A stretch of 64,000 nucleotides of DNA, from positions 274,308-338,307 of the forward strand of contig CAYVNN010000002.1 of assembly GCA_964453185.1 (NCBI GenBank), written 5' to 3'. Source of the stretch: an uncultured Methanosarcinales archaeon. GTDB lineage: Archaea > Nanobdellota > Nanobdellia > Woesearchaeales > DSVV01. Every line of letters starts with the position of its first letter. Within the stretch, counting starts at the first letter, position 1. A program made the position numbers and the translations under genes. The notes beneath the pieces were generated by a model that saw only the letters and a program-made list of their open reading frames with translations, was not told the origin of the DNA and did not search any database. This document shows, in pieces, positions 15,237 through 44,025 of this stretch.

Positions 15237-15237
15237 T

Positions 15238-20214: not shown

Positions 20215-20660
20215 GAGCATACAAAGTTTTTGCAATTGAAAATGGTACAGTTATTGACCATATCAGTAAAGGTTGTGCATTAAAAGTTATTAATATCTTA
20301 AATCTTCAACAATATGATCAAATTGTCACTGTTGGTATTAATCTTGAGAGTAAAAAAGAGGGTAAAAAGGACATTATTAAGATTGAAGACAAGACACTAA
20401 CAAAAAACGAACTTAATAAGATTGCATTAGTTGCACCAGATGCTAGTATTAACATCATCAAAGATCATAAAGTAGTGAAGAAGTTTAAAGTAAATGTACC
20501 TGATGAAATTTTAACAACAATAAAATGCAATAATCCAAAATGTATTACAAACCACCAAGGTGTTGAAACAATCTTTAACAAAGTCTCTGTTTCTCCTCTT
20601 AAACTTAAATGTCATTATTGTGAAAGAATAGTTGAAAACTCAGAAATACATTTAATTTAG
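20211..20660 (+). CDS. pyrI: Aspartate carbamoyltransferase regulatory subunit
   Basis: 149 aa with C-terminal zinc-domain cysteines (CNNPKCITNH...CHYCE). The start overlaps the pyrB stop by 4 nt. Confidence 0.9.
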   Translation: MRAYKVFAIENGTVIDHISKGCALKVINILNLQQYDQIVTVGINLESKKEGKKDIIKIEDKTLTKNELNKIALVAPDASINIIKDHKVVKKFKVNVPDEILTTIKCNNPKCITNHQGVETIFNKVSVSPLKLKCHYCERIVENSEIHLI

Positions 20661-20679
20661 TTTATTGTTAGCACAGTTA

Positions 20680-20817
20680 GCATTTAAACCAGCGCCTTGA
20701 GTCATTATCAAATATCCACATCACATCGCACTAAAAGTCGCAGGCGTTAGTCTTGTTTCACTTTGTACCAGACTCGCCCTGGTTTAAATGCGTACTAAAA
20801 GAGCCGTTGTGGTACTA
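20680..20817 (+). repeat. Structured intergenic repeat, copy R2 (type-1 stem), between pyrI and pyrD
   Basis: Same block order as R1 and 85-90% identical to it. The stem gcatttaaaccag/ctggtttaaatgc is perfect. The tail is agagccgttgtggtacta. Confidence 0.75.
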
Positions 20818-20841
20818 TTTATTATTTTTATGAGGAACTAA

Positions 20842-21756: not shown

Positions 21757-22555
21757 TAATAAACACCTTCCTATTGTGTTAAAGATTGATAAAATTGTTG
21801 AAGAGAGTAGTTTAATTAAAACATTTGTATTTAAGTATTCATTAAAAGCTTCACCTGGACAATTTATTAATGTTTGGCTTCCTGGTTTAGATGAAAAACC
21901 AATGAGTATTAGTTATCAAGATAATAACAGATTTGCATTTAGTGCTGCTGCTGTTGGTCCTTTTACAAAAACTTTACATAAACTAAAACAAGGGGATAAA
22001 TTAGGTATTCGTGGACCATATGGTAATGGGTTTGATGTAAAAGATTACAAAGATATTGTTATTATTGGTGGTGGTTGTGGTTGTGCTCCAATTATGTTTT
22101 TAGCAAATTATGCAAAATTGAAAGGGATTAACCCATTATTGATCATTGGTGCAAAAACAAAAGATGAAATTGCATTTAGAGAAAGAGTTTCAAATGCTTA
22201 TATTAAAACATTGTATTCAACTGATGATGGTAGTTTTGGTTTTAAAGGATTCACAACACAACTATTAGAAAAATTAATCTTAGAAAAAAGAAAGATTGAT
22301 TGTGTGTTTTGTTGTGGCCCAGAAATTATGATGAAAAAAATTGTTGAGTTATGTAATAAGTACAATATTAATTGTCAAGTTTCTTTAGAAAGAATGATGA
22401 AGTGTTCAATTGGTATATGTGGTAGTTGTTGTTTAGATAATACTGGTTGGAGAGTATGTAAAGAAGGACCTGTTTTTGATAAAGAAAAGGTTATTCAAAT
22501 AACTGAGTTTGGGGAATACAAAAGAGATAAATCTGGTTCAAAGGTGTTATTATGA
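21743..22555 (+). CDS. pyrK: Dihydroorotate dehydrogenase electron-transfer subunit
   Basis: FAD/NAD-binding ferredoxin-reductase-like fold with a C-terminal 2Fe-2S cysteine cluster (CSIGICGSCC...C). It overlaps pyrD. Confidence 0.85.
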   Translation: MHMCNNKHLPIVLKIDKIVEESSLIKTFVFKYSLKASPGQFINVWLPGLDEKPMSISYQDNNRFAFSAAAVGPFTKTLHKLKQGDKLGIRGPYGNGFDVKDYKDIVIIGGGCGCAPIMFLANYAKLKGINPLLIIGAKTKDEIAFRERVSNAYIKTLYSTDDGSFGFKGFTTQLLEKLILEKRKIDCVFCCGPEIMMKKIVELCNKYNINCQVSLERMMKCSIGICGSCCLDNTGWRVCKEGPVFDKEKVIQITEFGEYKRDKSGSKVLL

Positions 22556-23724
22556 ATGATTTATTAATTAAGAATTGTAAATTATCTACAAAAGATTTAA
22601 ATGTTATTAGGGATATTTTAATTGTTGATGGTAAAATAAGAAAAATTGGTAAAAATTTGATTAGTAATGTTAAAACATTTGATGTTTGTTATAATCATGT
22701 TATTCCTGGATTAGTTGATTCTCATGTTCATTTCAGAGACTTTGAACAAAAACATAAAGAAGATTGGCTTTCAGGATCAATTGCAGCATTATCTGGAGGA
22801 GTAACAACTGTTATGGATATGCCAAATAATAATCCTTCAATGTTAACTCTTGATTTACTTAAACAAAAAAGAAGATTAGCTAAAAAAACAAAGATTAATT
22901 CTTTCTTTCATTTTGGTTCTAGTAAAGATAATCTTGATGAAATCAGAAAAGCTTCATTAGAACATGATGTTGTTTCTACAAAGATTTACATGAATCATAC
23001 TACTGGGAATTTATTATTAAATAAAGATGAAGATTTAGATCTAATTTTTAGAACAGCCAAAATAATTTCTGTTCATGCTGAAAGTGAAATGCTAAAAAAG
23101 GCAATAAAATTAGCAAAAAAATATCATAATTATCTTTATGTTTGTCATGTTTCTTCAAGACAAGATCTGGATATTGTAAAGAAAGCTAAACAAGAATTAA
23201 AAAATAGAATCTTTTGTGAAGTAACACCTCATCATTTATTTTTAACAGAAAATGAAGAAAAAAAGCAAGGTGTATTTGCTAGGATGATGCCTTCATTAAA
23301 ATCTGGTAGAGATGTTCAGGCTTTATGGAAAGCTATTGCAGATGGTTATGTTGACACTATTGGTACAGACCATGCTCCGCATACTATTGAGGAAAAGAAA
23401 AAAGGAGCATTTGGTGTTCCTGGTGTTGAAACAATACTACCTTTATTATTGGATTCTGTTAACAATGGTGTTTTATCATTAACACAGGTTGTTAGGTTAT
23501 GTTCATCAAATCCAGCAGAGATTTTTGGTTTAAAAAATAAAGGGAAAATTAAACCTGGATATGATGGGGATTTAGTGGTTATTGATATGAATAAAAGAAA
23601 GAAAGTAGAACATTTAAAAACAAAATGTGGATGGAGTCCTTTTACAGGTAAAATATTAAAAGGATGGCCTCTATTAACTATAATAAAAGGGGAGATTTTG
23701 TGGGGGGATACAAGTGTCTTTTGA
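22552..23724 (+). CDS. pyrC: Dihydroorotase
   Basis: Amidohydrolase metal-binding motifs (DSHVHFRD, VHAE, GTDHAPH). Its position in the pyr operon supports the assignment. Confidence 0.75.
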   Translation: MNDLLIKNCKLSTKDLNVIRDILIVDGKIRKIGKNLISNVKTFDVCYNHVIPGLVDSHVHFRDFEQKHKEDWLSGSIAALSGGVTTVMDMPNNNPSMLTLDLLKQKRRLAKKTKINSFFHFGSSKDNLDEIRKASLEHDVVSTKIYMNHTTGNLLLNKDEDLDLIFRTAKIISVHAESEMLKKAIKLAKKYHNYLYVCHVSSRQDLDIVKKAKQELKNRIFCEVTPHHLFLTENEEKKQGVFARMMPSLKSGRDVQALWKAIADGYVDTIGTDHAPHTIEEKKKGAFGVPGVETILPLLLDSVNNGVLSLTQVVRLCSSNPAEIFGLKNKGKIKPGYDGDLVVIDMNKRKKVEHLKTKCGWSPFTGKILKGWPLLTIIKGEILWGDTSVF

Positions 23725-24391
23725 TGTGCATAAATTTGATGAGTTTCTTTTAAGAAATAATGTTGTTGGTTTTTTTGAGAATGAAATAACTTTAGTATCT
23801 GGTAGAAAATCACACTGGTATGCTAATTGTAGGGTTTTACAAGATAATGTTAATAATATTAATAGGTTATCTAAATTTATATTAAATTTTGTTGATGAAA
23901 GAAATCTTAGATTTGACTATTTTTTTGGTGTTCCAGAAGGTGTAACAAAATTAGCAACAGTTCTTAATTATAAAAGAGGGGTTATTAATGTTGACATGGA
24001 ACATAGATTAGTTATTGGCAGAGCAAAACCAAAATTGCATGGTATGCCCAAGGATAAATATTTTGTAGGTGATGTCAGACAAGATGATAGGGTTGTTATG
24101 ATTGAAGATGTTACAACAACAGGTGGATCATTATTAAGATCAATAGATAAGTTAAATGAAGTTGGTTTAAACATTGTTGCAGTGATTGGAATTGTGAACA
24201 GAATGGAAAAAAGGGATGATGGTAAATCAGTTGAACAAGCAATTGCAGCTAAAGGCATTCCTTACTTTTACTTAAGCAATTCATTAAGATTATTGCCAGT
24301 TGTTGCAAGAGATAAAAAGATTGATAAAGATATATTAAACAAAGTAGAACAAGGCTTTGAACAGTATGGTGTTGAGGTTTTAAAATTTTAA
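23714..24391 (+). CDS. pyrE: Orotate phosphoribosyltransferase
   Basis: PRPP-binding motif VVMIEDVTTTGGS and an N-terminal FxLxSGRxS region (ITLVSGRKSHWY). Confidence 0.75.
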   Translation: MSFDVHKFDEFLLRNNVVGFFENEITLVSGRKSHWYANCRVLQDNVNNINRLSKFILNFVDERNLRFDYFFGVPEGVTKLATVLNYKRGVINVDMEHRLVIGRAKPKLHGMPKDKYFVGDVRQDDRVVMIEDVTTTGGSLLRSIDKLNEVGLNIVAVIGIVNRMEKRDDGKSVEQAIAAKGIPYFYLSNSLRLLPVVARDKKIDKDILNKVEQGFEQYGVEVLKF

Positions 24392-24392
24392 A

Positions 24393-25253
24393 ATGGATTT
24401 CATAGAAAAACTAAAACAAAGAACAAAAGAAGTTAATTCCATTGTTTGCATGGGCTTAGATCCAGTTATTGATAAAATTCCTTTTCCTGAAGACGAGAAA
24501 AAAGAATCTCCGGGAAGAGTTATTGCATATTTTTATCTAGACATTCTTGAAGAAATGAAAAAACAAAATGTTTTCCCAGCAATTGTCAAACCAAACATCG
24601 CATTCTATGAACAATATGGTTTTGAAGGATTACATGCTCTAAAACTTATAATTACAAAATATAAAGAAGCAGGTATTCCTATTTTATTAGATGCAAAACG
24701 TGGTGATATTGGAAAAACCTCTAGAGCATATGCAAGAGCATTGTTTGACTTTTGGGATGCAGATGCAATCACAATTGCTCCTTACATGGGTTCAGATTCT
24801 GTTAGTCCATTTTTAGAATATTGTGAACAAGGAAAAGGTGTTTATGTTTTATGTAGAACTTCAAATAAAGGAGCTATTGACATGCAAAATTTAGTTGTTG
24901 GTGATGTTCCAATTTATATGAAAACAGCTGAAAAGATTTCTAATGATTGGTTTAAGCAAGGAATTGGTGCAGTAATTGGTGCAACATATCCTAAGGAGTT
25001 GGAAGAAATCTCTAAGTTTATGCAAAACAAACAAGTTCCGTTTTTAATACCTGGTGTAGGTGCGCAAGGTGGTTCAGCAACAGAAGTTGTTAAAGCATTG
25101 AAGAACTCTGGACAAGACATAAGTATTCATAGAATTAACTCTAGCAGTGGTATAAATTATGCTTATCTTAAGAAAAACACAGACAACTATGCCAAAGCAG
25201 CAGTAGATGCACTGAAAGAGTTAAATGAAGAAATAAATAAAAATTTAATTTAA
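24393..25253 (+). CDS. pyrF: Orotidine 5'-phosphate decarboxylase (long type-2 form)
   Basis: The LDAKRGDIGKTS catalytic Asp/Lys motif and a 286-aa length. It is the last gene of the pyr cluster. Confidence 0.75.
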   Translation: MDFIEKLKQRTKEVNSIVCMGLDPVIDKIPFPEDEKKESPGRVIAYFYLDILEEMKKQNVFPAIVKPNIAFYEQYGFEGLHALKLIITKYKEAGIPILLDAKRGDIGKTSRAYARALFDFWDADAITIAPYMGSDSVSPFLEYCEQGKGVYVLCRTSNKGAIDMQNLVVGDVPIYMKTAEKISNDWFKQGIGAVIGATYPKELEEISKFMQNKQVPFLIPGVGAQGGSATEVVKALKNSGQDISIHRINSSSGINYAYLKKNTDNYAKAAVDALKELNEEINKNLI

Positions 25254-26219
25254 TTCATATGTTGTTTTTACTTTATCCCTCATTTCTCTAACATGTCTTA
25301 AAAATGCAGGTTGCATTCCAGCGTTATCTCTCAAATATTCATCCCATAATTCAACAGCTCTTCTAGCTGTTCCTCTTAAATGTTCTTCACTAGAATCATC
25401 TTTTAGGGCATTAATGTATTCTTGGACATATGTTTTAGTAGATTCCATTTCTCTTTTAGCTTGTTCATTTGCTCTAACTGGGATTGAACCATTTTCTCCA
25501 TACCTTCTTTCTATTTGCTCAACAATTCCTTGAAAATATATACCATACATTGCAATATGTCTTGCATCATCAAAGGAATCTTTGAATGCTTTTTTTATTC
25601 CACCAGCTCGTCCAGTTTTAATTCTAGTATATGTATGTAAAGATGTTTGAGCTAACTTACTTACTATGTTTGCTGCAACTGTTGCATATCTACTTACTGC
25701 TGTTTCAATTGCATGTCCTTCTATTTCTACATAAGGAAGTAAAGCTTTTCTTGGAATTAATTCTCTACATACTGCTTCAGTTTCATCCCCAAATATGAAT
25801 ACTAATTTACTTACTCCTCTTGATAATTCTGTTACTTTAATTGCTCTTCCAATTCTATTATTAATAGCATGAACATTAACTCTTCCATCTCCATCATAAA
25901 ACGAAGAAATTCTTGTTTCTAAAACATCTGCTGATGTTTCAAGAACACTTGTAGCTAATGTTGTCATTGGAACGAGTTCAGCAACAGCACTAGCTTGATA
26001 TTCTGAAACAGTTCCATCAGTAATATTTGGATAAAAACTTAATTTTCTAACAAGGTCATCTCTTATTACTTCTGCTTCAGTATCTCTATCATCTTTTGGC
26101 TTTAATTTTCCAATATATTGTTCCCATAATTTGGTTGATTTACTAAAATCTGTTTCAGCTATAGCTGCTTCTTGTAATTGTGTTTTATTTTTTCCAAATA
26201 ATATATTCCATAATCCCAT
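25245..26219 (-). CDS. Hypothetical protein (324 aa) with atypical composition
   Basis: A long ORF with no recognised motif. It is GC-richer and K-poor. Confidence 0.4.
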   Translation of the reverse strand: MGLWNILFGKNKTQLQEAAIAETDFSKSTKLWEQYIGKLKPKDDRDTEAEVIRDDLVRKLSFYPNITDGTVSEYQASAVAELVPMTTLATSVLETSADVLETRISSFYDGDGRVNVHAINNRIGRAIKVTELSRGVSKLVFIFGDETEAVCRELIPRKALLPYVEIEGHAIETAVSRYATVAANIVSKLAQTSLHTYTRIKTGRAGGIKKAFKDSFDDARHIAMYGIYFQGIVEQIERRYGENGSIPVRANEQAKREMESTKTYVQEYINALKDDSSEEHLRGTARRAVELWDEYLRDNAGMQPAFLRHVREMRDKVKTTYELN

Positions 26220-26327: not shown

Positions 26328-26978
26328 TTATTTACCTTCGAACTTTGCCCATCCATCTAAGAATTCTTTAATAGTTGATTCTGTTCTTGGATGATATACA
26401 CTTTTTAATAACAATGGTCCTGGTACTGTTAAGATGTGTGCACCTGATGCCATTGATTTATTCAAATCAGTATTTGTTCTTATACTTCCTAAAATAATTT
26501 CAGTGTCATATCCATGTAAATCAAGCATTGCTCTTAATTCATTTGTAACTTGTTCTGCATCATATCCCATGTCTTCAATTCTTCCCCAGAATAAACTTGC
26601 ATATGTTGCACCTGCTTTTGCAGCTAGAATACATTGTCTTGCATTCATACATACAGTTACATTTGTTTTAATGCCTTCTTTACTTAGTACAGTTACTGCT
26701 TTTAATCCTTCAGGTGTTATAGGTATTTTAATAGCAATATCATCACACCAAGCATTATATTCTCTTGCTTCTCTTATTATTCCTTCAGCATCTTCAGCAA
26801 TAACTTCAACACTAAGTGGTCCTTTAACAATTTGTCTTATTTCTAAGATTCTTTGTTTAAAATTACAATCCTTTTCTTTCGCTACAATCAATGGATTGGT
26901 TGTTACACCATCAATAATTCCCCATGTAGCTAATTCTCTAAGTTCTTCTAAGTTTGCGGTATCTGCAAATATTTTCAT
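26328..26978 (-). CDS. Transaldolase / fructose-6-phosphate aldolase (MipB/TalC subfamily)
   Basis: MKIFADTANLEEL N-terminus, an active-site Lys region (KIPITPEGLKA), and 216 aa. Confidence 0.8.
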   Translation of the reverse strand: MKIFADTANLEELRELATWGIIDGVTTNPLIVAKEKDCNFKQRILEIRQIVKGPLSVEVIAEDAEGIIREAREYNAWCDDIAIKIPITPEGLKAVTVLSKEGIKTNVTVCMNARQCILAAKAGATYASLFWGRIEDMGYDAEQVTNELRAMLDLHGYDTEIILGSIRTNTDLNKSMASGAHILTVPGPLLLKSVYHPRTESTIKEFLDGWAKFEGK

Positions 26979-27010
26979 TTTATCCCTCCAATTTAATTAA
27001 TGCCATTAAT

Positions 27011-27117
27011 AATAGTGCCACCGCCTTGGCTCACTATCGGAATTATTTTCCAATAGCGACAAATGCTCGGATTCGTTCATCATATATTTGTATTGAATCA
27101 GAGCCGCTGTGGTACTA
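27011..27117 (+). repeat. Structured intergenic repeat, copy R6 (type-3 stem agtgccaccgcc/gccgctgtggtact; inner stem GGCTC/GAGCC)
   Basis: Block B is conserved (CGCCTTGGCTCACTATC). The 3' arm is cAGAGCCGC-tgtggtactatta, and both stems show compensatory changes relative to R1-R3. Confidence 0.65.
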
Positions 27118-27771
27118 TTATTTCACTACAGTATCTGATATTTCATTATCAAATACTTCCATTTCACCTTTATAGTTTTTAATTAATTCTTTCAACCTAA
27201 ATATAATTAAATGTTGAATATCACAATGGAATCCTTCTACTAATGGTGTTGAATCTTTTGGAACAATTATACATGCATCTGCTATTTCTTTGAATGCACC
27301 ACCATCAAATCCAGACATTCCTATAACTTGTCCACCTTTGTCTTTTATGAATTGCATTGCTTTTGTCAAGTTCTGACTCCATGGTCCACCTTTGTCTCTT
27401 CCTTTTCCACCATGTACACTTATAGCAATTCCAATATCTCCTGGCTGACAAAAGTTTTCTAATTGTCCAACATAAACATTTTCCCACCCTGAATCATTTA
27501 TCCATGCAGTTACTAATGGAACATTATCAAACAATGAGATTCCTTTGAATCTTCTTTTTCCTTCAATGATTGTTGTTTTTGTTAAGTCTGCTGCAAAATG
27601 TGTTGCAGTTGACGCACTTCCACCATTTCCAAACAAGAAAATTTGTTTATCATTTTTCCAAGCTTCAAATAAAATATTAATTGCTTTATCAATTTCATTC
27701 TTATCAATTGTTTCTGTAATATTAACAACTTCTTTCATATAATTTTCAATATATCCTATGTTATTTACCAT
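27118..27771 (-). CDS. gmhA: SIS-domain D-sedoheptulose-7-phosphate isomerase
   Basis: GNGGSASTATHFAADL is a GmhA-like SIS motif. The protein is 217 aa and sits next to heptose kinase, phosphatase and nucleotidyltransferase genes. Confidence 0.7.
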   Translation of the reverse strand: MVNNIGYIENYMKEVVNITETIDKNEIDKAINILFEAWKNDKQIFLFGNGGSASTATHFAADLTKTTIIEGKRRFKGISLFDNVPLVTAWINDSGWENVYVGQLENFCQPGDIGIAISVHGGKGRDKGGPWSQNLTKAMQFIKDKGGQVIGMSGFDGGAFKEIADACIIVPKDSTPLVEGFHCDIQHLIIFRLKELIKNYKGEMEVFDNEISDTVVK

Positions 27772-27782
27772 TTTAATTCCTC

Positions 27783-28790
27783 CTAAAACATATCTCCTTT
27801 GAATAATACTCTTGATCCATCAAAATCAAATTCAATAGGTGTATAGACTAATCCTTCTTTTTCAAATAACTCTTTGATTCTTTCATGGTTAGATTCTGCA
27901 TATAACATTAAGAACCCTCCTCCTCCAGCACCAATTATCTTTCCACCTAATGCACCATTTGCTAATGCCATTGTGTACCATTCATTGATTTTTTGATTAG
28001 ACATTTTGCTAGAAATTCCTCTCTTTAATTCCCAATGGATATTCATCCATTCTCCAAATCTTCTTAGGTTTCCTGTTTCTAAAGCTTTTTTACTTTCATC
28101 TCCTATTTTTTTAATTTCATGATAATAATCAAAGATATCTTTTTCACTTCTTTCTTCCTTTTTCTCTTCAGATTTATCTTTTTGATCTTTTAATACAGGA
28201 TCTGCACTTCTTCTGAATCCAGTATAAAACATCATTAAGTTTTTCTGTAGTTTTTTAATATCTTCAAAACTCATGTTTAATGGAGAAGCTGTAACTCTTC
28301 CTGATTGAGAAATTTTGAAATGATTAATGTTTCCAAATGCACATGCATATTGATCTTGTTTACCGCAATGTTCTTTTAGAATTTCCATTGTGATCTTTGA
28401 TGTATCTTCTGCTAATTTGTACTTGGAAACAATTTCTCCTTTGTAATAATATAATGCATTAAGTAACCCTACTAAGAATGAACCTGATGAACCAAGTCCT
28501 GTTCCAGATGGTATTTCAGCCATTGAATGAATCTCAATTCCGCCAGTAATACCAACTAATTTTAATGCTTCCCTAATCAAAGGGTGTTGTATTTCATCTA
28601 CTGTGTTTACTATTTCTGTTTTGGAGTAATTAAGTTTAATATCTCCTTGTACTCTGTCTCCAACCATAATGTAGATATACTTCTTTATTGCTCCTGAAAG
28701 CAAGGAAGCTCCAAATTTGTCTGCATAGAAGGGAAGGTCAGTGCCTCCGCCCCCCATGGATATTCTCAAAGGTGTTCTTGTAACAATCAT
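27783..28790 (-). CDS. hddA: GHMP kinase, D-glycero-alpha-D-manno-heptose 7-phosphate kinase (HddA-like)
   Basis: The N-terminal RTPLRISMGGGGTD motif is diagnostic of HddA/fucokinase-type GHMP kinases. The ATP-binding loop PSGTGLGSSGS is present. Confidence 0.7.
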   Translation of the reverse strand: MIVTRTPLRISMGGGGTDLPFYADKFGASLLSGAIKKYIYIMVGDRVQGDIKLNYSKTEIVNTVDEIQHPLIREALKLVGITGGIEIHSMAEIPSGTGLGSSGSFLVGLLNALYYYKGEIVSKYKLAEDTSKITMEILKEHCGKQDQYACAFGNINHFKISQSGRVTASPLNMSFEDIKKLQKNLMMFYTGFRRSADPVLKDQKDKSEEKKEERSEKDIFDYYHEIKKIGDESKKALETGNLRRFGEWMNIHWELKRGISSKMSNQKINEWYTMALANGALGGKIIGAGGGGFLMLYAESNHERIKELFEKEGLVYTPIEFDFDGSRVLFKGDMF

Positions 28791-28923
28791 TGTAATTTCT
28801 TTCAGAAATTTACTCCTATATAAAGCTTTCGCAGAAAGGTTTAAAAAGGGGAAATGTTTATTACTTAGTTTAAGTGTAATTATGTCGGAATGTTTATATA
28901 TATCAATTATTTGGAAGTTTGAT

Positions 28924-29967
28924 ATGAAACAAATAAGCCTTTATTGGATAACATTGCTTCTTATGTTTATTTGTGTATTATTCCTAACCAGTTGTTCCAC
29001 TAATAATAATGAATCAAATGACTTCTTAATCAATATCTATGACCAAGACAAAGCTCAGGATGGAACAACATTATTCTTTACAGATATTGATGGTTCTCTT
29101 TGTATTGTTGAAGTAGATATGGAAGGAAATATTATTTGGAGATATGATTTAGAAGGAGAAATAAAGGAACATACATCTCCTGGTTTTGATATTGAAATAT
29201 TAGACAATAATAACTTACAATTATTAGCTCCAAAACTTGGTGTTTTTGAAATCACAAGAAATGGTGAAATAGTACGGTCATATTATGATGAAAAGGTTTC
29301 ACATGATGCAGACAGATTAGATAATGGTAATGTACTGATTGCATATGGAGCATCGGACACAAAAGAAGATGCTCAGGCTAAAGAAATTGATCATGAAGGA
29401 AATGTTGTGTGGGAATGGTATGCTGCTGAACACTTTGATTATGATATTTCTTGTTCTGGATTTACACATACAAATGCGGTTGAAAGATTAAAAAATGGAA
29501 ATACTTTGATCAGCTTAAGAAATTTTAATTTTTTAGTTATTGTTGATGAAGAGGGGGAAATAGTTCGTAAAGTTGGAGAAGGTATCTTGTATTCTCCTCA
29601 TGATCCTGAAGTTCTAGGCAATACAATTACTGTTGCATCACAAGGTACCTTAGATTGTTATCTTAATCAAATGGATGATTACACTGCAGCAATGGAGATG
29701 AATCTTTATAATGATGAAATCCTTTGGCAGTATGATGAGGGAGAGTGGAGTGATTCTCTTTGTGGTCAAAAAAAGCCATGTGATAATCAGTTAGTAAGAG
29801 ACGTTAATAAATTATCCAATGGAAATTATCTTATTGTGGGTACAGCTAAAATAATTGAAGTAACAACTAATGGAGAAATTGTTTGGGAGTTAGAAACTAA
29901 TAACGAGATCAACAATGATTCTAAGGCAAGACTTGGATTCTATAAAGCTATAAGAATAGAAAGTTAG
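28924..29967 (+). CDS. Secreted/lipoprotein beta-propeller protein with NGN-repeat (arylsulfotransferase/PQQ-like)
   Basis: The likely true start is MKQISLYWITLLLMFICVLFLTSC, giving a lipobox-like LTSC. The upstream part of the annotated ORF overlaps hddA. Repeated blades carry DNGNVLI, KNGNTLI and SNGNYLI. Confidence 0.45.
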   Translation: MKQISLYWITLLLMFICVLFLTSCSTNNNESNDFLINIYDQDKAQDGTTLFFTDIDGSLCIVEVDMEGNIIWRYDLEGEIKEHTSPGFDIEILDNNNLQLLAPKLGVFEITRNGEIVRSYYDEKVSHDADRLDNGNVLIAYGASDTKEDAQAKEIDHEGNVVWEWYAAEHFDYDISCSGFTHTNAVERLKNGNTLISLRNFNFLVIVDEEGEIVRKVGEGILYSPHDPEVLGNTITVASQGTLDCYLNQMDDYTAAMEMNLYNDEILWQYDEGEWSDSLCGQKKPCDNQLVRDVNKLSNGNYLIVGTAKIIEVTTNGEIVWELETNNEINNDSKARLGFYKAIRIES

Positions 29968-30542
29968 TTCCCTAGTATCTTCTCTACTGCTTCTAATAAA
30001 TCTTTTACAACAAAGTCAGGTGTAGCTTCTAAACCTTGTTCATGTCTTGCTCCAGACCCTCCGCCTAAAACAAACACAGTTTTACATCCTGCTTTTTGAC
30101 CTGCAACAATGTCTGACTTAGAATCACCTATCATCCAAGAATTATTTAAATCAATATCATGTTCTTTTGCAGCCTTTAACAACATTCCTGGCTTTGGTTT
30201 TCTACAATCACAATCTATCTTTAACTCAACAATTTCACCTTCAAAACCTTTTTCAGGATGATGTGGACAATAATAAATATCATCAATCTTTGCATCTACT
30301 AATTCTTTTAGTTTAATATGTATTGCATCAATCTGTTCAAATGTAATAAATCCTTTTGAAACTTTTGGTTGGTTTGTAACTACAATAGCCAAATAACCTG
30401 CATCATTAATCATCTTAACAGCTTTACTTGTTCTTTTTCTATCTATTAATGAATATTTTTCAGGTGTTAATTCTATTTTTTCTTGTGTTTTATAATTTCT
30501 ATTAAAAATCCCATCTCTGTCAATAAATATTGCTTTGTTCAT
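29964..30542 (-). CDS. gmhB: D,D-heptose 1,7-bisphosphate phosphatase (HAD family, GmhB-like)
   Basis: HAD motif I FIDRDG, HAD motif II VTNQ, and a CxHxxxxC zinc site (YYCPHHPEKG...CDCRKP) typical of GmhB. Confidence 0.7.
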   Translation of the reverse strand: MNKAIFIDRDGIFNRNYKTQEKIELTPEKYSLIDRKRTSKAVKMINDAGYLAIVVTNQPKVSKGFITFEQIDAIHIKLKELVDAKIDDIYYCPHHPEKGFEGEIVELKIDCDCRKPKPGMLLKAAKEHDIDLNNSWMIGDSKSDIVAGQKAGCKTVFVLGGGSGARHEQGLEATPDFVVKDLLEAVEKILGN

Positions 30543-31306
30543 AATATTACCTCTTTATCTTTGAATTCTTCTAAAAACTTTTCATACTTTTCAACTCTTC
30601 CAATTTCTCTAAAGAATTCTTCTGTTGGATATCCTTGAAATTTCAAACCCTTTTCCATTAACAAAGGAAATAATTGTTTACAAAAATCAAACTTAGTATT
30701 TTCAGGTATTAATTCAAATATTTCTTTCTTAAAAGCATATATTCCTGAATTAATATATCTTTTCTCATCCTTATACTTCTCAATTTCTTCTATAGGTGGT
30801 TTTTCTAAAAATACTTTAATACTATCATTATCATTTAATGTTATTACGCTTGAACTTTTATAGCCAGAAGGCAGAGGCCTCATACATATTGTTGCAATTG
30901 CTCCACTTTCTTTATGTGCTTGTAAAAACTTATCAAAATCCATGTTTGTTAAGTTGTCTCCATAATAAACAATAAAATCATCTTCAACTAATCCTTCAAC
31001 TAATTTAACACTACCTGCTGTTCCCATTAACTCATCTGTTTCTTGTACATATTGAACATTTAATCCAAACCGACCTCCATCTCCAAAATGTTCTTTAACC
31101 TTCTCAGCTAGATGTGCAACACAAAATATAATCTCAGTATATCCTTTTTTCTTTAGAAAGTTTAGTTGTCTTTCAATCAATGGTATTCCATTAATATCAA
31201 TTAAACATTTAGGAATCTCTTCAGTTATTGGCTTCATTCTAGTAGCAAGGCCACCTGCAACAATTATTATTTTAGTCATTTTTACTTTTCCAATATTCAA
31301 GAACAT
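30539..31306 (-). CDS. hddC: Sugar-1-phosphate nucleotidyltransferase (D-glycero-alpha-D-manno-heptose 1-phosphate guanylyltransferase-like)
   Basis: N-terminal IIVAGGLATRMKPITEEIPKCLIDI, matching the GxGxRL-type motif. The likely start is at the MTKIII Met. It lies in the heptose pathway cluster. Confidence 0.65.
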   Translation of the reverse strand: MFLNIGKVKMTKIIIVAGGLATRMKPITEEIPKCLIDINGIPLIERQLNFLKKKGYTEIIFCVAHLAEKVKEHFGDGGRFGLNVQYVQETDELMGTAGSVKLVEGLVEDDFIVYYGDNLTNMDFDKFLQAHKESGAIATICMRPLPSGYKSSSVITLNDNDSIKVFLEKPPIEEIEKYKDEKRYINSGIYAFKKEIFELIPENTKFDFCKQLFPLLMEKGLKFQGYPTEEFFREIGRVEKYEKFLEEFKDKEVIL

Positions 31307-32171
31307 CTTTTAATGTATCTTTTATATTAATCTCTGGCTTCCATCCTGTATCTTTGTTAAATTTTGAATAATCTCCAATTAATTTTAAAATATCATTTTT
31401 CCTTAATTTTGATTCATCTATTTTAATTTCAAAATTATTATCACTTAACTCTTTATATGCATCTAATATTTTCCTTCCAGTTAACTCTTGTCCTGAACAA
31501 ATATTATACACTTCACCTTTTCCACCTTTCATAACAGCTAAAACATATGCTCTAACAACATCTCTAACATCAGTATAATCTCGTTTTGTATCAATGTTTC
31601 CTACTAATATTGTTTTATTACCATCAACAATTTGTTTAGCAAAATCACTTGCTATGAACCCCAGTGGTTGTCCTGGTCCTATGTGATTAAAGCTTCTAGA
31701 AATAACTATATGTAATTCAGGAAATTCTTTACATACTTGTTCTTGCATTAATTTACTTCTTGTGTATGCATTTAATGCATCCTCTCCTTTGATTGGTGTT
31801 TCTTCTGTAATAACACCATCTTCAGGTATTTCATAAACATATGAAGAACTTATTACTAATGTCTTACAATCTATCTCTAATTCTTTAACACACAACAAAA
31901 CATTTCTTGTTCCATTTTCTGCAATATCCATTGCTATTTCAGGAATTTCTTCACATCTACTTGGAACACTGATTGCTGCAAGATGAAATACTAGATCTGG
32001 TTTAATTTTCTCTAAGATGCTTTTTAATTCTTCTTTATTCAAAATATCACACTTAAGAGCACCATTATTCCCTACTCTATCAACACCAAAAACTTCAATG
32101 TTATTTCTCTCTAATTCTTTTCTTAAATAATTTCCAACAAATCCATTTATTCCTGTAATAAACGCCTTCAT
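31272..32171 (-). CDS. NAD(P)-dependent sugar-nucleotide reductase/epimerase (Rmd/GDP-4-keto-6-deoxy-mannose reductase-like)
   Basis: Rossmann motif [10 protein letters not shown] and a YxxxK catalytic region. It is co-oriented with the downstream GMD gene and overlaps it by 4 nt. Confidence 0.65.
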
Positions 32172-33208
32172 TTGCCTAACTCTTTTAGATCTGCTTCATA
32201 CATTATTTTAACTAATTCTTTAAATGTAACTCTTGGTACCCAACCAAGTTCAGTCTTTGCTTTTGTTGGATCTCCAAGTAATATTTCAACTTCTGCTGGT
32301 CTAAAATATTTTGGATTAATCTTTAACACAACTTCACCATTATCAGTTCTAGTATATTCTTCTTCTAATCCTGTTTTACCATTACTTTTTACTTCAATAC
32401 CTGCCGCTTCAAATGCAGCTTCGACAAACTCTCTTACAGTATGTGTTTCTCCTGTTGCTAACACATAATCATCTGGTTTTTCTTGCTGTAACATTAACCA
32501 CATTCCTTCAACATAGTCTTTAGCATATCCCCAATCTCTTTTAGCATCAATATTTCCAAGAGAGAAACATTTACTCTTTCCTAACTTAATCTTTGCTACT
32601 TCTCTTGTTATTTTTCTAGTTACAAAGTTTTCTCCTCTTCTTGGGGATTCATGATTAAACAAGATACCATTACATGTAAACATATCATAACTTTCTTTAT
32701 AATTTTTACAAATCCAGAATGCATACAACTTTGCACAACCATATGGACTTCTTGGATAGAATGGTGTTGTTTCTTTTTGTGGTGTTTCAACTACTTTTCC
32801 AAACAATTCAGATGTTGATGCTTGGTAGAATTTAATCTTTTTACCTGTTTCATTAATTATTGTTCTTATTGCTTCTAACAATCTTACTGTTCCTAAAGCA
32901 TTAACATCTCCAGTGTATTCTGGTTGATCAAAACTAATCTTAACATGACTCTGTGCAGCTAGGTTATATACTTCATCAGGGGTATATTTTCTCATTATAT
33001 TATTTATTGAACTAGAATCACTTAAATCTCCATATTCAAGAATTAAATTAGGGTTATTTCTTAAATGATCTATTCTTTGTCTGTTAAATATAGATATTCT
33101 TCTTACAATTCCTATAACTTTGTACCCTTTTTCAAGTAAAAATTCAACTAGATAAGATCCATCCTGACCTGTAACTCCAGTAATTAATGCTGTTTTCATA
33201 ATAATCAC
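32168..33208 (-). CDS. gmd: GDP-mannose 4,6-dehydratase family
   Basis: [31 protein letters not shown] then an Sx(24)YxxxK arrangement (STSELFG...[10 protein letters not shown]), and 346 aa. Confidence 0.8.
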
Positions 33209-33259
33209 CTGTTTATTTATTAATTAAATATCAGAATTATACTTGTTATATAAAGTTTA

Positions 33260-34306
33260 TTATATATTATTTAATATCTTATACAACTTCTCAGCACTTT
33301 TCTTCCAGCTGAACCTTTTTGCATTTTTAAGGCCTTTTTTAATCAAAATTTCTCTTAATTTCTTATTTTTAAGAACTTTATTTACTTCTTTAGTAATCTC
33401 TTTTTCATTAATATCTCTTAATATGATTGCTGCATCTCCTACTACTTCTTTTAATGATGTTTTATGTGTGGTAATAACTGGACAACCGCAAGCCATTGCT
33501 TCTAATGGTGGGATACCGAATCCTTCAAAAACACTGGGGAAAACAAATACCTTAGCTATGTTATAGAAAGAAACAAGATCTTCTTCACAAACATTTTCTA
33601 GTATAAATACTCTCTTTTCTAATTTTAATTCTTTAATTAACTCAAGATTTTTCTTTCTATTCTCAGAATTTTGATGTACTCCAATTTTAACAAAGATAAT
33701 ATCTTTTAACAAACTCATTGCTTTGATTATTTTATCAACATTTTTTCTGTTTTGTTCAGTTCCTACATATAGTATAATCTTTTTATCAGGTAAGTTATAC
33801 TTTTTTAATAATGATTTTTTATTAACTTTCTTTTGCTTATGTATTGAATGATTAATTGCAGGATTAACAATTTCAATATTATATGTTTTTAATTTTTTAA
33901 TTATCTCTTGTTTTGAATATTCACTTATTGTAATTATTTTATCAGCTTTTTTCATATATCTCCAATTAATGATTGTTAAAAAATATCCTAATTTTTGCAT
34001 TAAACTACCTTCTTTTTTCGCATTTAAATCATAACATACAATTACCTTTTTCCCTGGACAAAATAATAAATTTAGTCCTAAGGATGGGTCAAGAAAGTAG
34101 TTTAATTCATAGCTGTAATTAAAGAATAATTTTGTTGGTAAAATAACATACTGTTTAAATAGTCTTATTAAACCAAATTGTTTTGCTTTGTAAGAATATT
34201 CATTTATTTTTATTTTATTTTTTATCTCAGAAAATAATGAATTATTATATTTATCTATGCTGTTAATATATTCTCTTTTTAATCCTCTAACTAAATTAAT
34301 TTTCAT
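33260..34306 (-). CDS. Glycosyltransferase family 4
   Basis: C-terminal EX7E-type motif [25 protein letters not shown]. Confidence 0.7.
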
Positions 34307-35277
34307 GTTCTGCCTTCTTCTCTCTCTAAAACTTCAGGATTTTCAAGAATATATCTTGCAGTCATTCTGATTGCTTCTTTCACAGGTGTCTTTGCTTCCC
34401 ATCCTAATTCTTTTAATCGCTTTGTACATAACTTTACAAATGGTGCATCTCCTTTCCATCCTCTGTCTCCACCTGTAAATGTGTATTTAACATCTTTTAA
34501 TCCCATCTCTTCACATACTATGTTTGCAAGTTCAATAACATTTAGATGATCTTTATGACCTAAGTTAAAGACATTTTTATTACCTTTTGCATTCTTAATT
34601 GCAAAAAACATTCCTTCAATTCCATCCTTAACATATAGATAAGATTTCTTTTGTTGTCCATCTCCTAATATCTCCATTTCTTTTGGATTATTTTTTAATT
34701 TTTTAATAAAATCAAAAACAGCTCCATGGGTATATCGTTCACCCATCCAAGAAACAAAACGGAAAATCCATGATCTCATATCATAGTATTCACAATATGC
34801 TTGTATCATTCCTTCTCCAGCTAACTTTGATGCTCCATATAATGATGTTTGGATTAATGGATAATCTTCTGGTGTTGGAAAAACATCAGGCTCACCATAA
34901 ACACAAGAGGTACTTGAGAATACTATGTTTTTGATATTATTTATTCTCATTGCTTCAAGAACATTCCATGTTGCAATTGTATTCTGTTCAAGATCAACTC
35001 TTGTTTTATTAATTCCACCTCTAACATCAGCATTAGCTTGGAGATGAAAAACAAAATCATGTCCTTTCATAGATTCAGTTAATGTTTTTAGATCTAATAC
35101 ATCAGCTTTAATTACTTTAAACTTAGGATTGTCTTGATTATGTTTGATGAATAGTTTTCTTCCAGTACAAAAGTTATCATATACAGTAACCTCATTACCC
35201 TCTTCTAATAACTTATCCACAATATGTGAGCCAATAAACCCTGCTCCACCTGTAACAAATGCTTTCATAATAATCAC
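34303..35277 (-). CDS. NAD-dependent epimerase/dehydratase (UDP-sugar 4-epimerase-like)
   Basis: Rossmann motif VTGGAGFIGSH, a YxxxK motif (YGASKLAGE) and 324 aa. Confidence 0.75.
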   Translation of the reverse strand: MIIMKAFVTGGAGFIGSHIVDKLLEEGNEVTVYDNFCTGRKLFIKHNQDNPKFKVIKADVLDLKTLTESMKGHDFVFHLQANADVRGGINKTRVDLEQNTIATWNVLEAMRINNIKNIVFSSTSCVYGEPDVFPTPEDYPLIQTSLYGASKLAGEGMIQAYCEYYDMRSWIFRFVSWMGERYTHGAVFDFIKKLKNNPKEMEILGDGQQKKSYLYVKDGIEGMFFAIKNAKGNKNVFNLGHKDHLNVIELANIVCEEMGLKDVKYTFTGGDRGWKGDAPFVKLCTKRLKELGWEAKTPVKEAIRMTARYILENPEVLEREEGRT

Positions 35278-35279
35278 CT

Positions 35280-36269
35280 TTATTTTATATTATCCAATAA
35301 AAACTTAGGAAAGTATGTCATTTTATATGTTTTTTCTAATTGTAAACTCTCTATATTTTGGATAAGTAGTCCGAACTTGCTTCTGATTTCTCTCTCAACC
35401 TTTTTGAATTGAATCATATCTTCTGTTTCAATCATTATTTCAATATCCCATTCCCCTAATGTCTTAACTAAACTTGTTACATAAGGATGCATTTTTAGAT
35501 AATTTACTAGATTATTTTCTAATTTTGTAGAAACATTATGGTATTTGATTAATAATATTATTGCTGTTCTATTTATTTCTCTTGGATCAACTAGCATTCT
35601 AAATCCTTTTATTATATTTCTTTTTTTTAATTCTTTAATTCGATTAATAATTGTTTTAGGTGTTAGTTCTAATTCTTGACTTAATTTTACAGAACTAGTC
35701 CTAGCATCTTCAGAAAGTTTTTTTAACAGTTTTATATCTATGTTATTCAACTTCTCTGGTTCTTTATCTCCTCCTATCATCATCTGAGGTGTTTTTGACA
35801 TATCTTTAAACAAATACTTTTTTCCAAATAATCTTATTACAATGGTAGTTAATATTGTATAATTTTGTAATTGTTTAGGAAATTCTTCCATAATTGATCT
35901 AAGAATCTTGTTAAATAAAGAAACATTTGATGCAAGGAATGTACATATTAGATCATATCTTCCACTACATGTTTTAACCCAATATGTGTTAGGATGTGAT
36001 TCAAAGAATTCTAATAATTTATCAAATCTTTTTTCACTCATATAATTAATTCGAAAATAAACTCTAAATCCTATAAGATTTAGTTTTGAATAATCAATTC
36101 CAGTATAAAATCCTTTAATAATTCCTCTTTTCTTTAGTGAATTAACAATATAACTAACTCTTTGTTGACTCATTCTTGTTTTTTTACCTATCTTAGAAAA
36201 TGCTATTCTTGAGTTTATTTCTAATTCTCGCAACACAGAAATTTCAGTTTTTTTCAACTTTGAAGCCAT
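35280..36269 (-). CDS. Tandem Lrp/AsnC-type transcriptional regulator (two HTH-RAM units fused)
   Basis: Two HTH_AsnC-like segments, ISVLRELEINSRIAFSKIGKKTRMSQQRV and IKLLKKLSEDARTSSVKLSQELELTPKTIINRI, each followed by a RAM-like region. 329 aa. Confidence 0.6.
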   Translation of the reverse strand: MASKLKKTEISVLRELEINSRIAFSKIGKKTRMSQQRVSYIVNSLKKRGIIKGFYTGIDYSKLNLIGFRVYFRINYMSEKRFDKLLEFFESHPNTYWVKTCSGRYDLICTFLASNVSLFNKILRSIMEEFPKQLQNYTILTTIVIRLFGKKYLFKDMSKTPQMMIGGDKEPEKLNNIDIKLLKKLSEDARTSSVKLSQELELTPKTIINRIKELKKRNIIKGFRMLVDPREINRTAIILLIKYHNVSTKLENNLVNYLKMHPYVTSLVKTLGEWDIEIMIETEDMIQFKKVEREIRSKFGLLIQNIESLQLEKTYKMTYFPKFLLDNIK

Positions 36270-44008: not shown

Positions 44009-44025
44009 TTTTATTACCTTAACTA

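Follow-up and report, generated by a model that had tools for sequence, protein, structure and literature searches.

A candidate surface-glycan precursor island in a Woesearchaeota-type archaeon, with a conserved heptose module and an inserted GMD-Rmd block

Organization of the locus

The window, the whole 64,000-nucleotide stretch of DNA analysed, carries a group of sugar-nucleotide genes on its minus strand (Table 1), whose products were assigned to families with NCBIfam and Pfam profiles and by sequence searches of the PDB. The six open reading frames (ORFs) drawn in the preliminary description are real, with boundaries that agree exactly with ours, and all lie on the minus strand. Three more genes on the same strand, missing from that description, belong to the unit: a transaldolase, a GT4-family glycosyltransferase and a 4-epimerase-type SDR. 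The genes for the GDP-mannose 4,6-dehydratase (GMD), the Rmd-like reductase, the nucleotidyltransferase (NT) and GmhB are tightly packed in one operon, with 4-bp overlaps at two junctions and an ambiguous start codon at the Rmd/NT junction. On this strand GMD and Rmd sit upstream (5′) of NT and GmhB, not downstream as had been stated. The isomerase, kinase, phosphatase and NT genes had also been called adjacent; all four are present, but they are not contiguous, as a plus-strand ORF separates GmhB from the kinase and there are therefore two transcription units.

Table 1. Features of the cluster and its immediate surroundings (positions in the window)
Feature	Position	Strand	Matches and remarks
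Fsa/TalC-class short transaldolase, 216 aa	26328–26978	−	TIGR00875 226.8 bits (cut-off 246)
SIS-domain GmhA-like sedoheptulose-7-P isomerase, variant clade	27118–27771	−	TIGR00441 94.6 bits (cut-off 209); PDB GmhA 48–66 bits
HddA-like GHMP anomeric kinase	27783–28790	−	Begins MIVTRTPLRISMGGGGTD; NCBIfam HddA best match, 154 bits (cut-off 600)
Arylsulfotransferase-like beta-propeller with lipoprotein-type signal	28921–29967	+	Pfam Arylsulfotrans, Arylsulfotran_2
GmhB-type HAD-IIIA heptose-1,7-bisphosphate 7-phosphatase	29964–30542	−	NF006506 143 bits; TIGR01656 116 (cut-off 84); TIGR01662 84 (cut-off 44.6)
Sugar-1-phosphate nucleotidyltransferase (NT)	30539–31306	−	Pfam NTP_transferase; 4 bp overlap with GmhB; likely true start 31279
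Rmd-like C4 reductase, GDP-4-keto-6-deoxy-D-mannose reductase type	31272–32171	−	PDB 2PK3 187 bits, 6X3B 134 bits; 4 bp overlap with GMD
GDP-mannose 4,6-dehydratase (GMD)	32168–33208	−	TIGR01472 531.6 bits (cut-off 415); likely true start ATG at 33199
GT4-family glycosyltransferase	33260–34306	−	Pfam Glycos_transf_1 121 bits; 4 bp overlap with epimerase stop
SDR, archaeal GDP-sugar 4-epimerase subgroup ("SDR2")	34303–35277	−	PDB 3EHE 317 bits; PhGal4E_1 (8RDG/8RDH) 277 bits; E. coli GalE ~80
Lrp/AsnC-type two-domain transcriptional regulator	35280–36269	−	Pfam HTH_AsnC-type, HTH_24, MarR_2, AsnC_trans_reg

The intervening arylsulfotransferase-like ORF interrupts the cluster and lies outside the pathway. 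It has a counterpart in none of the related loci but is also present on other contigs of the same species. Directly upstream of the cluster, the Lrp/AsnC-type gene stops 3 bp short of where the epimerase gene starts; it is not conserved across the related loci, and it may open the operon or regulate it. Elsewhere in the window, L32e, an archaeal-type uL30, uS5, uL18, uL6, uS8 and SecY mark the host as archaeal, and the best named relatives of SecY are from Woesearchaeota (72–76% identity), in line with a Woesearchaeota-type DPANN archaeon.

A probable heptose module conserved in archaea and bacteria

Gene neighborhoods were compared around the kinase in 59 loci (11 archaeal, 48 bacterial), each at least 12 kb long. 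The kinase is accompanied by NT in 54 of them, the SIS isomerase in 52, GmhB in 46, the transaldolase in 45 (at a median distance of 2–3 kb) and the 4-epimerase in 38, whereas GMD occurs in three and Rmd in none. As the same genes come together again in dozens of unrelated genomes, the clustering is not due to chance; transaldolase, isomerase, kinase, GmhB, NT and 4-epimerase form one ancient module common to archaea and bacteria. In a Thermoplasmatales MAG (L067), the epimerase, kinase, isomerase, GmhB and transaldolase genes follow one another in a tight operon. The earlier view that heptose nucleotide sugars are rare in archaea was overstated, since the kinase family is widespread there (DPANN, Asgard, Nitrososphaerales, Thermoplasmatota and Methanospirillum) and the N-glycans of Thermoplasma contain heptose, namely D-glycero-D-galacto-heptose (PMC12448462).

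The preliminary description had proposed a four-step, HddA-type route to an NDP-heptose, and this is supported by the affinity of the kinase, the conservation of the module and fusions that involve GmhB and the transaldolase. The kinase scores 124–136 bits to three HddA/WcbL structures (3K85, 4USK and 4N3O), against 56 bits to fucokinase and 47 bits to galactokinase, so the affinity to galacto- or fucokinases that the preliminary description had named as a refutation is not seen; it would convert heptose-7-P to heptose-1,7-bisphosphate. GmhB retains the DRDG motif together with a zinc loop of the form CPHH...CDC, and matches GmhB structures in the PDB at 66–83 bits. The transaldolase probably supplies sedoheptulose-7-P to the pathway; one protein (P0111) is a natural transaldolase::kinase fusion with 46% and 50% identity to the two window proteins.

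That the kinase, isomerase and phosphatase act instead on the phosphate of some other sugar, for example a hexose or an octose, and have no role in heptose synthesis is very improbable. All three do score under curated equivalog cut-offs, and several NCBI MAG records name the kinase homologues galactokinase. However, their best matches are consistently heptose enzymes (~130 bits for the kinase, as against ~47 for galactokinase), the combination of isomerase, anomeric kinase, GmhB-type phosphatase and NT is specific to the heptose route, and both the transaldolase linkage and the fusion point to sedoheptulose-7-P.

The isomerase is altered at two of the four conserved active-site/metal positions. 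Its tetrad, checked against alignments with GmhA structures in the PDB, is His-Asp-Glu-His versus His-Glu-Gln-His in canonical GmhA, so that Asp replaces the catalytic Glu, and Glu replaces Gln. Both substitutions are found in all 56 of the 56 module-linked SIS proteins, and they make the C2 configuration of the heptose uncertain.

The 4-epimerase-type SDR retains YxxxK (Y145/K149), R83, H182 and the tryptophan of the RGWKGD motif. Orthologues with ~50% identity lie within 2.5 kb of a heptose gene in 27 of the kinase loci and at most 300 bp away in 15, yet none is present in 45 polysaccharide loci that were centered on Rmd relatives and served as controls. From its sequence and neighborhood, the SDR appears to be a conserved part of the heptose module, with a modifying role. 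Its subgroup, which includes PhGal4E_1 and 3EHE, prefers GDP-sugars experimentally (PMC12171764), which supports GDP as the nucleotide of the module. The same paper gives no physiological substrate for the subgroup, and heptose is absent from its text.

Together, these two enzymes raise the prospect of a heptose other than the manno isomer: the variant isomerase would yield D-glycero-D-gluco-heptose-7-P, and the 4-epimerase would produce GDP-D-glycero-D-galacto-heptose, the sugar of Thermoplasma N-glycans. We consider this unlikely. It would account for the invariant Asp and Glu and for the activity of the epimerase subgroup on GDP-glucose (PMC12171764), and it fits the tight operon of the Thermoplasmatales MAG and the occurrence of this heptose in Thermoplasma glycans (PMC12448462), for whose biosynthesis a literature search found no account. 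The proposal is nevertheless purely inferential; Asp for Glu and Glu for Gln are conservative replacements that could leave the stereochemistry unchanged, and the epimerase subgroup is promiscuous.

The nucleotidyltransferase

Like the kinase and isomerase, NT scores under the NCBIfam equivalog cut-offs, with 138 bits to mannose-1-P guanylyltransferase and 99.5 bits to HddC. By profile score it is slightly nearer the mannose enzymes, but natural NT::GmhB fusions, which make up 20 of the best 120 NT orthologue clusters, tie it to heptose-1-P. We infer that NT is a heptose-1-P guanylyltransferase, a functional analogue of HddC. The NTs of the bacterial loci score best to MurU-type uridylyltransferases, so the nucleotide may differ from GDP across parts of the family.

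A single NT could in principle serve two branches, accepting GTP with both mannose-1-P and heptose-1-P, such that one operon would yield GDP-heptose (and its 4-epimer) and, via GMD/Rmd, GDP-D-rhamnose without a separate ManC. This seems rather improbable, even though by HMM the enzyme is as close to mannose-1-P guanylyltransferases as to HddC, JGI labels its orthologues mannose-1-phosphate guanylyltransferase, its gene immediately follows GMD-Rmd, and the window holds no second NT. One relative (L172) has a separate ManC-type gene, complete with the ManC beta-helix domain, beside its NT::GmhB fusion, which suggests a division of labor, and the repeated fusion to GmhB argues for an NT dedicated to heptose-1-P. 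Moreover, the genome measures at least 405 kb, of which only ~84 kb was inspected.

The GT4-GMD-Rmd block

The dehydratase exceeds the NCBIfam equivalog cut-off for GMD and carries the catalytic motifs TSE and YxxxK. In the PDB it matches GMDs, including the human and E. coli enzymes, at 450–458 bits, versus 126 bits for the GDP-heptose 4,6-dehydratase of C. jejuni (7US5). The reductase has YxxxK, but Tyr replaces the Glu of the dehydratases, and its top PDB matches are Rmd of A. thermoaerophilus (2PK3), followed by that of P. aeruginosa (6X3B). It is divergent, with its best metagenomic relatives at no more than 42% identity; none of these Rmd relatives lies beside heptose genes.

The GT4-GMD-Rmd block is a lineage-specific insertion between epimerase and NT. 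It is found in 0 of 15 archaeal relatives examined, and in L002, a Nanoarchaeia relative, the genes for epimerase, NT and GmhB adjoin and overlap one another, and GT4, GMD and Rmd are missing. Relatives L169–L172 also lack GMD and Rmd, and two loci (L127 and L149) have a GMD and Rmd-like pair without heptose genes.

The preliminary description had put forward GMD and Rmd as DmhA and DmhB, which would convert GDP-heptose to GDP-6-deoxy-heptose. The comparisons do not support this, and we regard it as unlikely. In its favor, the packing of GMD, Rmd, NT and GmhB in one operon also fits the use of the NT product by GMD/Rmd; NT, with orthologues fused to GmhB, is apparently dedicated to heptose; neither ManC nor phosphomannomutase (PMM) is present in the window; and a 6-deoxy-D-manno-heptose reductase needs stereochemistry of the Rmd type. 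Enzymes of heptose pathways also cross-react with mannose-based substrates, C6 with C7 series (PMC7949155), which makes substrate calls from homology soft. Against this, the dehydratase is firmly in the canonical GMD clade and distant from 7US5, the one heptose 4,6-dehydratase with a solved structure. Of the 59 loci, only three have a GMD close to the module and none has an Rmd orthologue there; in L048, one of the three, genes for an aminotransferase and an acetyltransferase come after GMD, an order of the perosamine type. The closest archaeal relatives have no such pair, and the metagenomic relatives of Rmd keep apart from heptose genes. The alternative named in the same description, GDP-D-rhamnose from GDP-mannose, is the better reading. 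ManC, PMM and phosphomannose isomerase were not found in the 64-kb window or in a further 10 kb checked at one end, so the source of GDP-mannose is unseen.

Proposed pathway

We lean, if only modestly, toward region 26328–35277 being a surface-glycan precursor island of two modules, one for a GDP-heptose and its 4-epimer and a separate one for GDP-D-rhamnose. In the first, sedoheptulose-7-P from the transaldolase would be isomerized by the SIS protein to D-glycero-D-heptose-7-P, the HddA-like kinase would add the anomeric phosphate in the alpha configuration, GmhB would remove the 7-phosphate, and NT would activate the heptose-1-P, most probably with GTP. The SDR would then invert C4 of the activated heptose. 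In the second, GMD and the Rmd-type reductase would turn GDP-mannose into GDP-D-rhamnose. One of these sugars may be transferred by the GT4 enzyme, presumably to a surface glycan. As the proposed 6-deoxy-heptose product is not supported, the cluster would encode a rather unremarkable sugar route with some features not yet studied. We know of no report of D-rhamnose from archaea.

Comparison with known systems

The heptose module has the families and chemical logic of the four-step HddA-type route, namely an SIS isomerase, a GHMP anomeric kinase, a HAD-IIIA 7-phosphatase and an NT, and the best PDB relatives of its kinase are HddA/WcbL. It differs in that the proteins are at the ~30% identity level and under NCBIfam equivalog cut-offs, the isomerase has His-Asp-Glu-His, not His-Glu-Gln-His, and the NT is not clearly HddC. 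It also adds a transaldolase and a GDP-sugar 4-epimerase and is encoded in an archaeon. As summarized in PMC11461863, Tang et al. (2024) reported HldE/HldA-HldC-type enzymes for NDP-beta-D-manno-heptose from archaea, viruses and eukaryotes alike, which shows that functional heptose-nucleotide synthesis from sedoheptulose-7-P is encoded in archaea. The beta-anomer is made there by a kinase of the ribokinase family and an adenylyltransferase with the cytidylyltransferase fold, whereas the window has a GHMP-kinase, alpha-anomer route.

The SDR aligns end to end, at 277–317 bits, with PhGal4E_1 of Pyrococcus horikoshii (8RDG/8RDH), 3EHE of A. fulgidus and 3AW9 of P. calidifontis. It shares Y145/K149, R83, H182 and the guanine-stacking Trp motif with this subgroup, but has Ala for P80 and is encoded within a heptose module.

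As with DmhA/DmhB of Yersinia and DdahA (WcbK) and the reductases of Campylobacter, a pair of SDR 4,6-dehydratase and C4-reductase adjoins heptose-activation genes. Here, however, the dehydratase is a canonical GMD and falls outside the clade of heptose dehydratases (126 bits to 7US5 versus ~455 to GMDs), and the pair is not a conserved partner of the heptose module. The locus also resembles the Gmd and Rmd pathway to GDP-D-rhamnose of Pseudomonas aeruginosa and A. thermoaerophilus: GMD is above its equivalog cut-off, the GMD and Rmd genes are adjacent and overlapping, and the two best solved relatives of the reductase are the Rmd enzymes of these same two organisms. It differs in that the window reductase is divergent and genes for GDP-mannose supply were not found nearby.

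Gene layout and host

The window has a G+C content of ~30% and encodes the archaeal ribosomal proteins L32e, archaeal-type uL30, uS5, uL18, uL6 and uS8, along with SecY, whose closest named relatives belong to Candidatus Woesearchaeota and Nanoarchaeota (72-76% identity). The ribosomal proteins and the relatives of SecY thus identify the host as a DPANN archaeon. Scans of the 64-kb window for tRNAs and Rfam families found no RNA genes.

Six minus-strand open reading frames (ORFs) span 27118-33208, and their coordinates are exactly those given in the preliminary description. Three further genes of the same unit had been overlooked there: a short transaldolase, a GT4 glycosyltransferase and a 324-aa SDR, referred to below as the epimerase. 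Overlaps of 4 bp occur at three junctions, namely epimerase/GT4, GMD/Rmd and NT (nucleotidyltransferase)/GmhB. Contrary to the preliminary description, the four heptose genes are not all adjacent, since a plus-strand ORF splits GmhB from the kinase, and NT-GmhB is preceded on its 5' side by GMD and Rmd rather than followed by them. The intervening ORF encodes an arylsulfotransferase-like β-propeller protein that has no counterpart in related loci, where the position is either empty or occupied by a UDP-Glc/GDP-Man dehydrogenase and a classical SDR.

The surroundings are varied. Only 3 bp separate the epimerase gene from an upstream regulator gene that is not conserved in related loci, while the ORF directly after the transaldolase is found at the same place in contigs L163, L164 and L167, which belong to the same species. 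The sugar cluster also adjoins a nearly complete pyrimidine biosynthesis cluster. Bro-N domains are typical of viruses and phages; one is encoded here on an archaeal contig, with an unannotated ORF and a second GT4 glycosyltransferase as neighbors.

Genes of the sugar unit and its surroundings in the window
Feature	Position	Strand	Remark
Large ORF	83-1270		no family match
MoxR-type AAA+ ATPase with adjoining VWA/DUF58 protein	1262-3407	-	
Large ORF	10836-12215		no family match
Transglutaminase-core protein	15238-17214	-	658 aa
Pyrimidine biosynthesis cluster	19258-25253	+	pyrB, pyrI, pyrD, pyrK-like Fe-S subunit, dihydroorotase-like amidohydrolase, pyrF
ORF	25245-26219	-	324 aa; no Pfam or NCBIfam match
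Short transaldolase	26328-26978	-	sugar unit
SIS/GmhA-like isomerase	27118-27771	-	sugar unit
GHMP kinase	27783-28790	-	sugar unit
Arylsulfotransferase-like β-propeller	28921-29967	+	lipoprotein-type signal (…LFLTSCSTNN)
HAD-IIIA GmhB	29964-30542	-	sugar unit
NT	30539-31306	-	sugar unit
Rmd-like SDR	31272-32171	-	sugar unit
GMD	32168-33208	-	sugar unit
GT4 glycosyltransferase	33260-34306	-	sugar unit
324-aa SDR (epimerase)	34303-35277	-	sugar unit
Regulator	35280-36269	-	329 aa; two tandem winged-helix/Lrp-AsnC units
Bro-N domain protein	40841-41680	-	
Unannotated ORF	41829-42872		347 aa
Second GT4 glycosyltransferase	42869-44047		

A conserved module, probably for heptose

Homologs of the kinase with 50-72% identity are found in Nano-, Aenigm-, Woese- and Pacearchaeota, Asgard archaea and Nitrososphaerales. 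A kinase-anchored scan of GTDB species genomes yielded 80 loci, which add Undinarchaeota, Methanospirillum, Thermoplasmatota and Bathyarchaeota to the archaeal groups; many of the 80 are bacterial (Acidobacteriota, Verrucomicrobiota, Planctomycetota, Actinomycetota and others). Partner genes were sought by tblastn with the window proteins, and the counts cover the 59 loci that are 12 kb or longer. The NT is present in 54 of these, the SIS isomerase in 52, GmhB in 46, the transaldolase in 45 and the epimerase in 38. These counts define the conserved unit as kinase, NT, SIS, GmhB, transaldolase and epimerase, and in several Acidobacteriota (L018, L079 and L080) the six genes form a tight operon.

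Many archaeal and bacterial modules carry an additional redox trio, consisting of an adh_short SDR, a UDP-Glc/GDP-Man dehydrogenase-family enzyme and a GFO/IDH/MocA oxidoreductase (L002 7817-9938; L171 7784-9947 and 12354-13334; L172 12310-15416; L043 8134-10004; L048 9004-10017). None of the three genes is in the window. The trio suggests that the activated heptose may undergo further changes, such as oxidation at C7.

Kinase, phosphatase and nucleotidyltransferase

The best solved relatives of the kinase are the HddA-type heptose-7-phosphate kinases 3K85, WcbL (4USK) and 4N3O, at 124-136 bits, as opposed to 56 bits for fucokinase and 47 bits for galactokinase. HddA is also its top NCBIfam model (154 bits, far under the strict cut-off of 600). 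The protein is therefore an HddA-type GHMP anomeric kinase, as first proposed, and not a galacto- or fucokinase. Several homologs in metagenome-assembled genomes (MAGs) bear the NCBI name galactokinase, an assignment rejected for the window kinase on its NCBIfam and PDB scores. The phosphatase likewise proves to be a GmhB-type HAD-IIIA enzyme with a zinc site: its best PDB matches are GmhB structures, DRDG and CPHH..CDC zinc-loop motifs are present, and it scores 143 bits against NF006506. The models matched over their cut-offs, TIGR01656 and TIGR01662 among them, are HAD-IIIA and histidinol-phosphatase-domain models.

By score alone, the identity of the NT is ambiguous. Among NCBIfam models it matches mannose-1-phosphate guanylyltransferase with 138 bits and HddC with 99.5 bits (cut-off 300), and among PDB entries a UGPase-like chain with 139 bits and HddC structures with only 75 bits. 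Gene fusions are more informative. NT::GmhB fusions of ~440 aa account for 20 of the best 120 NT ortholog clusters (P0145, P0161 and P0162 are examples), and in P0161, where the fusion was verified, the C-terminal half matches the window GmhB at 51% identity. This gene sits in an operon of the order epimerase - NT::GmhB - kinase - SIS - transaldolase, with a separate ManC-type gene in the same locus (L172). A second fusion, of transaldolase to kinase (P0111; L162 2062-3708), is 46% and 50% identical to the respective window proteins; it is known from one 4-kb contig and thus serves as supporting evidence only. Together, the fusions tie the NT to heptose-1-phosphate as its probable substrate and the pathway to sedoheptulose-7-phosphate, and this evidence outweighs the equivocal HMM scores.

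A variant isomerase

GmhA is the best family match of the SIS protein, though at 94.6 bits against a TIGR00441 cut-off of 209, and PDB GmhA structures are its best solved matches (48-66 bits). Canonical GmhA has a His/Glu/Gln/His tetrad that includes the catalytic base and that binds zinc in Burkholderia. The window protein instead has His/Asp/Glu/His, and so do all 56 kinase-linked SIS proteins, archaeal and bacterial (L002-L081). The module-linked proteins also carry Val for Thr 120 and Pro for Asp 169 (E. coli numbering); the tetrad positions were checked by HMMER alignments to GmhA structures from C. jejuni, V. cholerae and B. pseudomallei in the PDB. By these residues, the module-linked isomerases form a distinct clade.

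D-glycero-D-galacto-heptose is the 4-epimer of gluco-heptose, not of manno-heptose. It is present in Thermoplasma N-glycans (PMC12448462; PMC11407970), and we found no study of its biosynthesis in the literature searched. In the Thermoplasmatales MAG L067, epimerase, kinase, SIS, GmhB and transaldolase genes form one operon. Because of this operon, the Thermoplasma sugar and its 4-epimer relation to gluco-heptose, it is worth asking whether the variant tetrad changes the stereochemistry at C2.

An SDR of the GDP-sugar 4-epimerase subgroup

The 324-aa SDR can be aligned over its whole length with the archaeal subgroup of promiscuous GDP-sugar 4-epimerases (GDP-Gal4E), scoring 317 bits with A. 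fulgidus 3EHE, 277 bits with P. horikoshii PhGal4E_1 (8RDG/8RDH) and 213-232 bits with P. calidifontis 3ICP and 3AW9; E. coli GalE gives ~80 bits. It retains the catalytic Tyr/Lys, R83, H182 and the tryptophan of RGWKGD, and has Ala in place of P80. The retained residues have been linked to catalysis, sugar rotation and guanine stacking in GDP-Gal4E, a subgroup that prefers GDP-sugars; the same study does not name a physiological substrate or mention heptose (PMC12171764). An identity as an HldD-like heptose 6-epimerase was considered and rejected (68 bits with TIGR02197 versus 277-317 bits with the GDP-sugar 4-epimerases).

Orthologs with ~50% identity lie within 300 bp of a heptose gene in 15 kinase-anchored loci and within 2.5 kb in 27, and none was found in 45 control polysaccharide loci anchored on Rmd relatives. 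We infer that the activated heptose is 4-epimerized by this enzyme and, at least in modules containing it, is linked to GDP.

The dehydratase and reductase

The dehydratase, described previously as a GMD homolog, is a bona fide GDP-mannose 4,6-dehydratase (GMD), with 531.6 bits against the NCBIfam equivalog TIGR01472 (cut-off 415) and TSE and YxxxK motifs. Canonical GMDs in the PDB match it with 450-458 bits, but the heptose-dehydratase reference, C. jejuni GDP-heptose 4,6-dehydratase (7US5), with 126 bits, which on this comparison places it outside the heptose 4,6-dehydratase clade. The best solved relatives of the reductase are the two characterized Rmds of A. thermoaerophilus (187 bits) and P. 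aeruginosa (134 bits). It keeps YxxxK and has Tyr in place of the dehydratase catalytic Glu. As had been supposed, it is probably an Rmd-type GDP-4-keto-6-deoxy-D-mannose reductase, a membership called from best matches because there is no curated model. Such a reductase suits GDP-D-rhamnose and 6-deoxy-D-manno-heptose alike and hence does not discriminate between them.

Gene context does bear on the choice. GMD is found in three of the 59 loci, all bacterial, and an Rmd ortholog in none. In L002 (Nanoarchaeia), the closest GTDB relative with flanking DNA sufficient for gene order, the epimerase, NT and GmhB genes are contiguous and overlapping without GT4, GMD or Rmd, and the pair is also absent from L169-L172, whose kinases are 67-72% identical to that of the window. 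L048, a gammaproteobacterial MAG and one of the three loci with GMD, has the heptose module followed by GMD, a hexapeptide acetyltransferase and a DegT aminotransferase (14056-16849), a set that may make a GDP-N-acetylperosamine-type sugar or a heptose analog. A metagenome scan with the Rmd-like protein as anchor returned only relatives of at most 42% identity, none in a heptose context, and served as a control; in L127 and L149, such distant relatives are paired with canonical GMD and heptose genes are absent. Taken together, these loci indicate that the GT4-GMD-Rmd block was inserted into a pre-existing heptose operon in a lineage-specific event.

GDP-D-rhamnose is accordingly the economical product of GMD and Rmd. 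Production of GDP-6-deoxy-heptose by the pair would be more striking but is less likely. In its favor, a search of the 64-kb window and of 10 kb beyond one end, a stretch occupied by a ribosomal-protein operon, found no ManC, ManB, PMM or PMI for GDP-mannose supply; GMD, Rmd, NT and GmhB are close-packed in one operon; and cross-reaction between heptose and mannose enzymes is documented (PMC7949155). However, the GMD scores are canonical and the pair is not conserved with the heptose module. Thus, the heptose route of the preliminary description probably stands, while its DmhA/DmhB-type 6-deoxy-heptose step failed on both features tested, clade and coupling.

Implications

If GDP-D-rhamnose is made beside the heptose, a small-genome DPANN archaeon devotes resources to activating two rare sugars for its cell surface. 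Since DPANN cells are attached to hosts, their surface glycans are candidates for recognition. Beyond this organism, the value of the result is comparative, as an HddA-type module with built-in transaldolase and GDP-sugar 4-epimerase is common in archaea and in Acidobacteriota, Verrucomicrobiota, Planctomycetota and Actinomycetota. We tentatively suggest, as a possibility held at less than even confidence, that transaldolase, variant SIS, HddA-like kinase, GmhB, NT and GDP-sugar 4-epimerase constitute a widespread uncharacterized pathway in archaea and many soil and aquatic bacteria, the most interesting version of which would yield GDP-D-glycero-D-galacto-heptose via a gluco-configured intermediate. 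If true, that version would explain how Thermoplasma makes its N-glycan heptose and would give the GDP-Gal4E subgroup its missing physiological substrate. The module is a testable candidate on both counts, and its main interest lies in the testable link between a heptose module, GDP-Gal4E epimerases and galacto- or talo-configured heptoses.

Comparison with known systems

Heptose is not new to archaea: Thermoplasma glycans contain it, and β-NDP-heptose enzymes of the HldE type have been demonstrated in archaea (PMC11461863). For a GHMP-kinase route with transaldolase and GDP 4-epimerase, the literature searched contained no characterization in any organism. The α-GDP-heptose route of A. thermoaerophilus and C. 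jejuni (PMC10680097) has similar chemistry, and its kinase and phosphatase features match those of the window. Unlike in the DmhA/DmhB and DdahA/WcbK systems, the window dehydratase lies outside the heptose clade and the pair is uncoupled from heptose genes across relatives, whereas both enzyme types of the Gmd and Rmd pathway to GDP-D-rhamnose are present. The SDR resembles archaeal GDP-Gal4E (PhGal4E_1/3EHE) over its full length and shares its key residues, but differs at P80.
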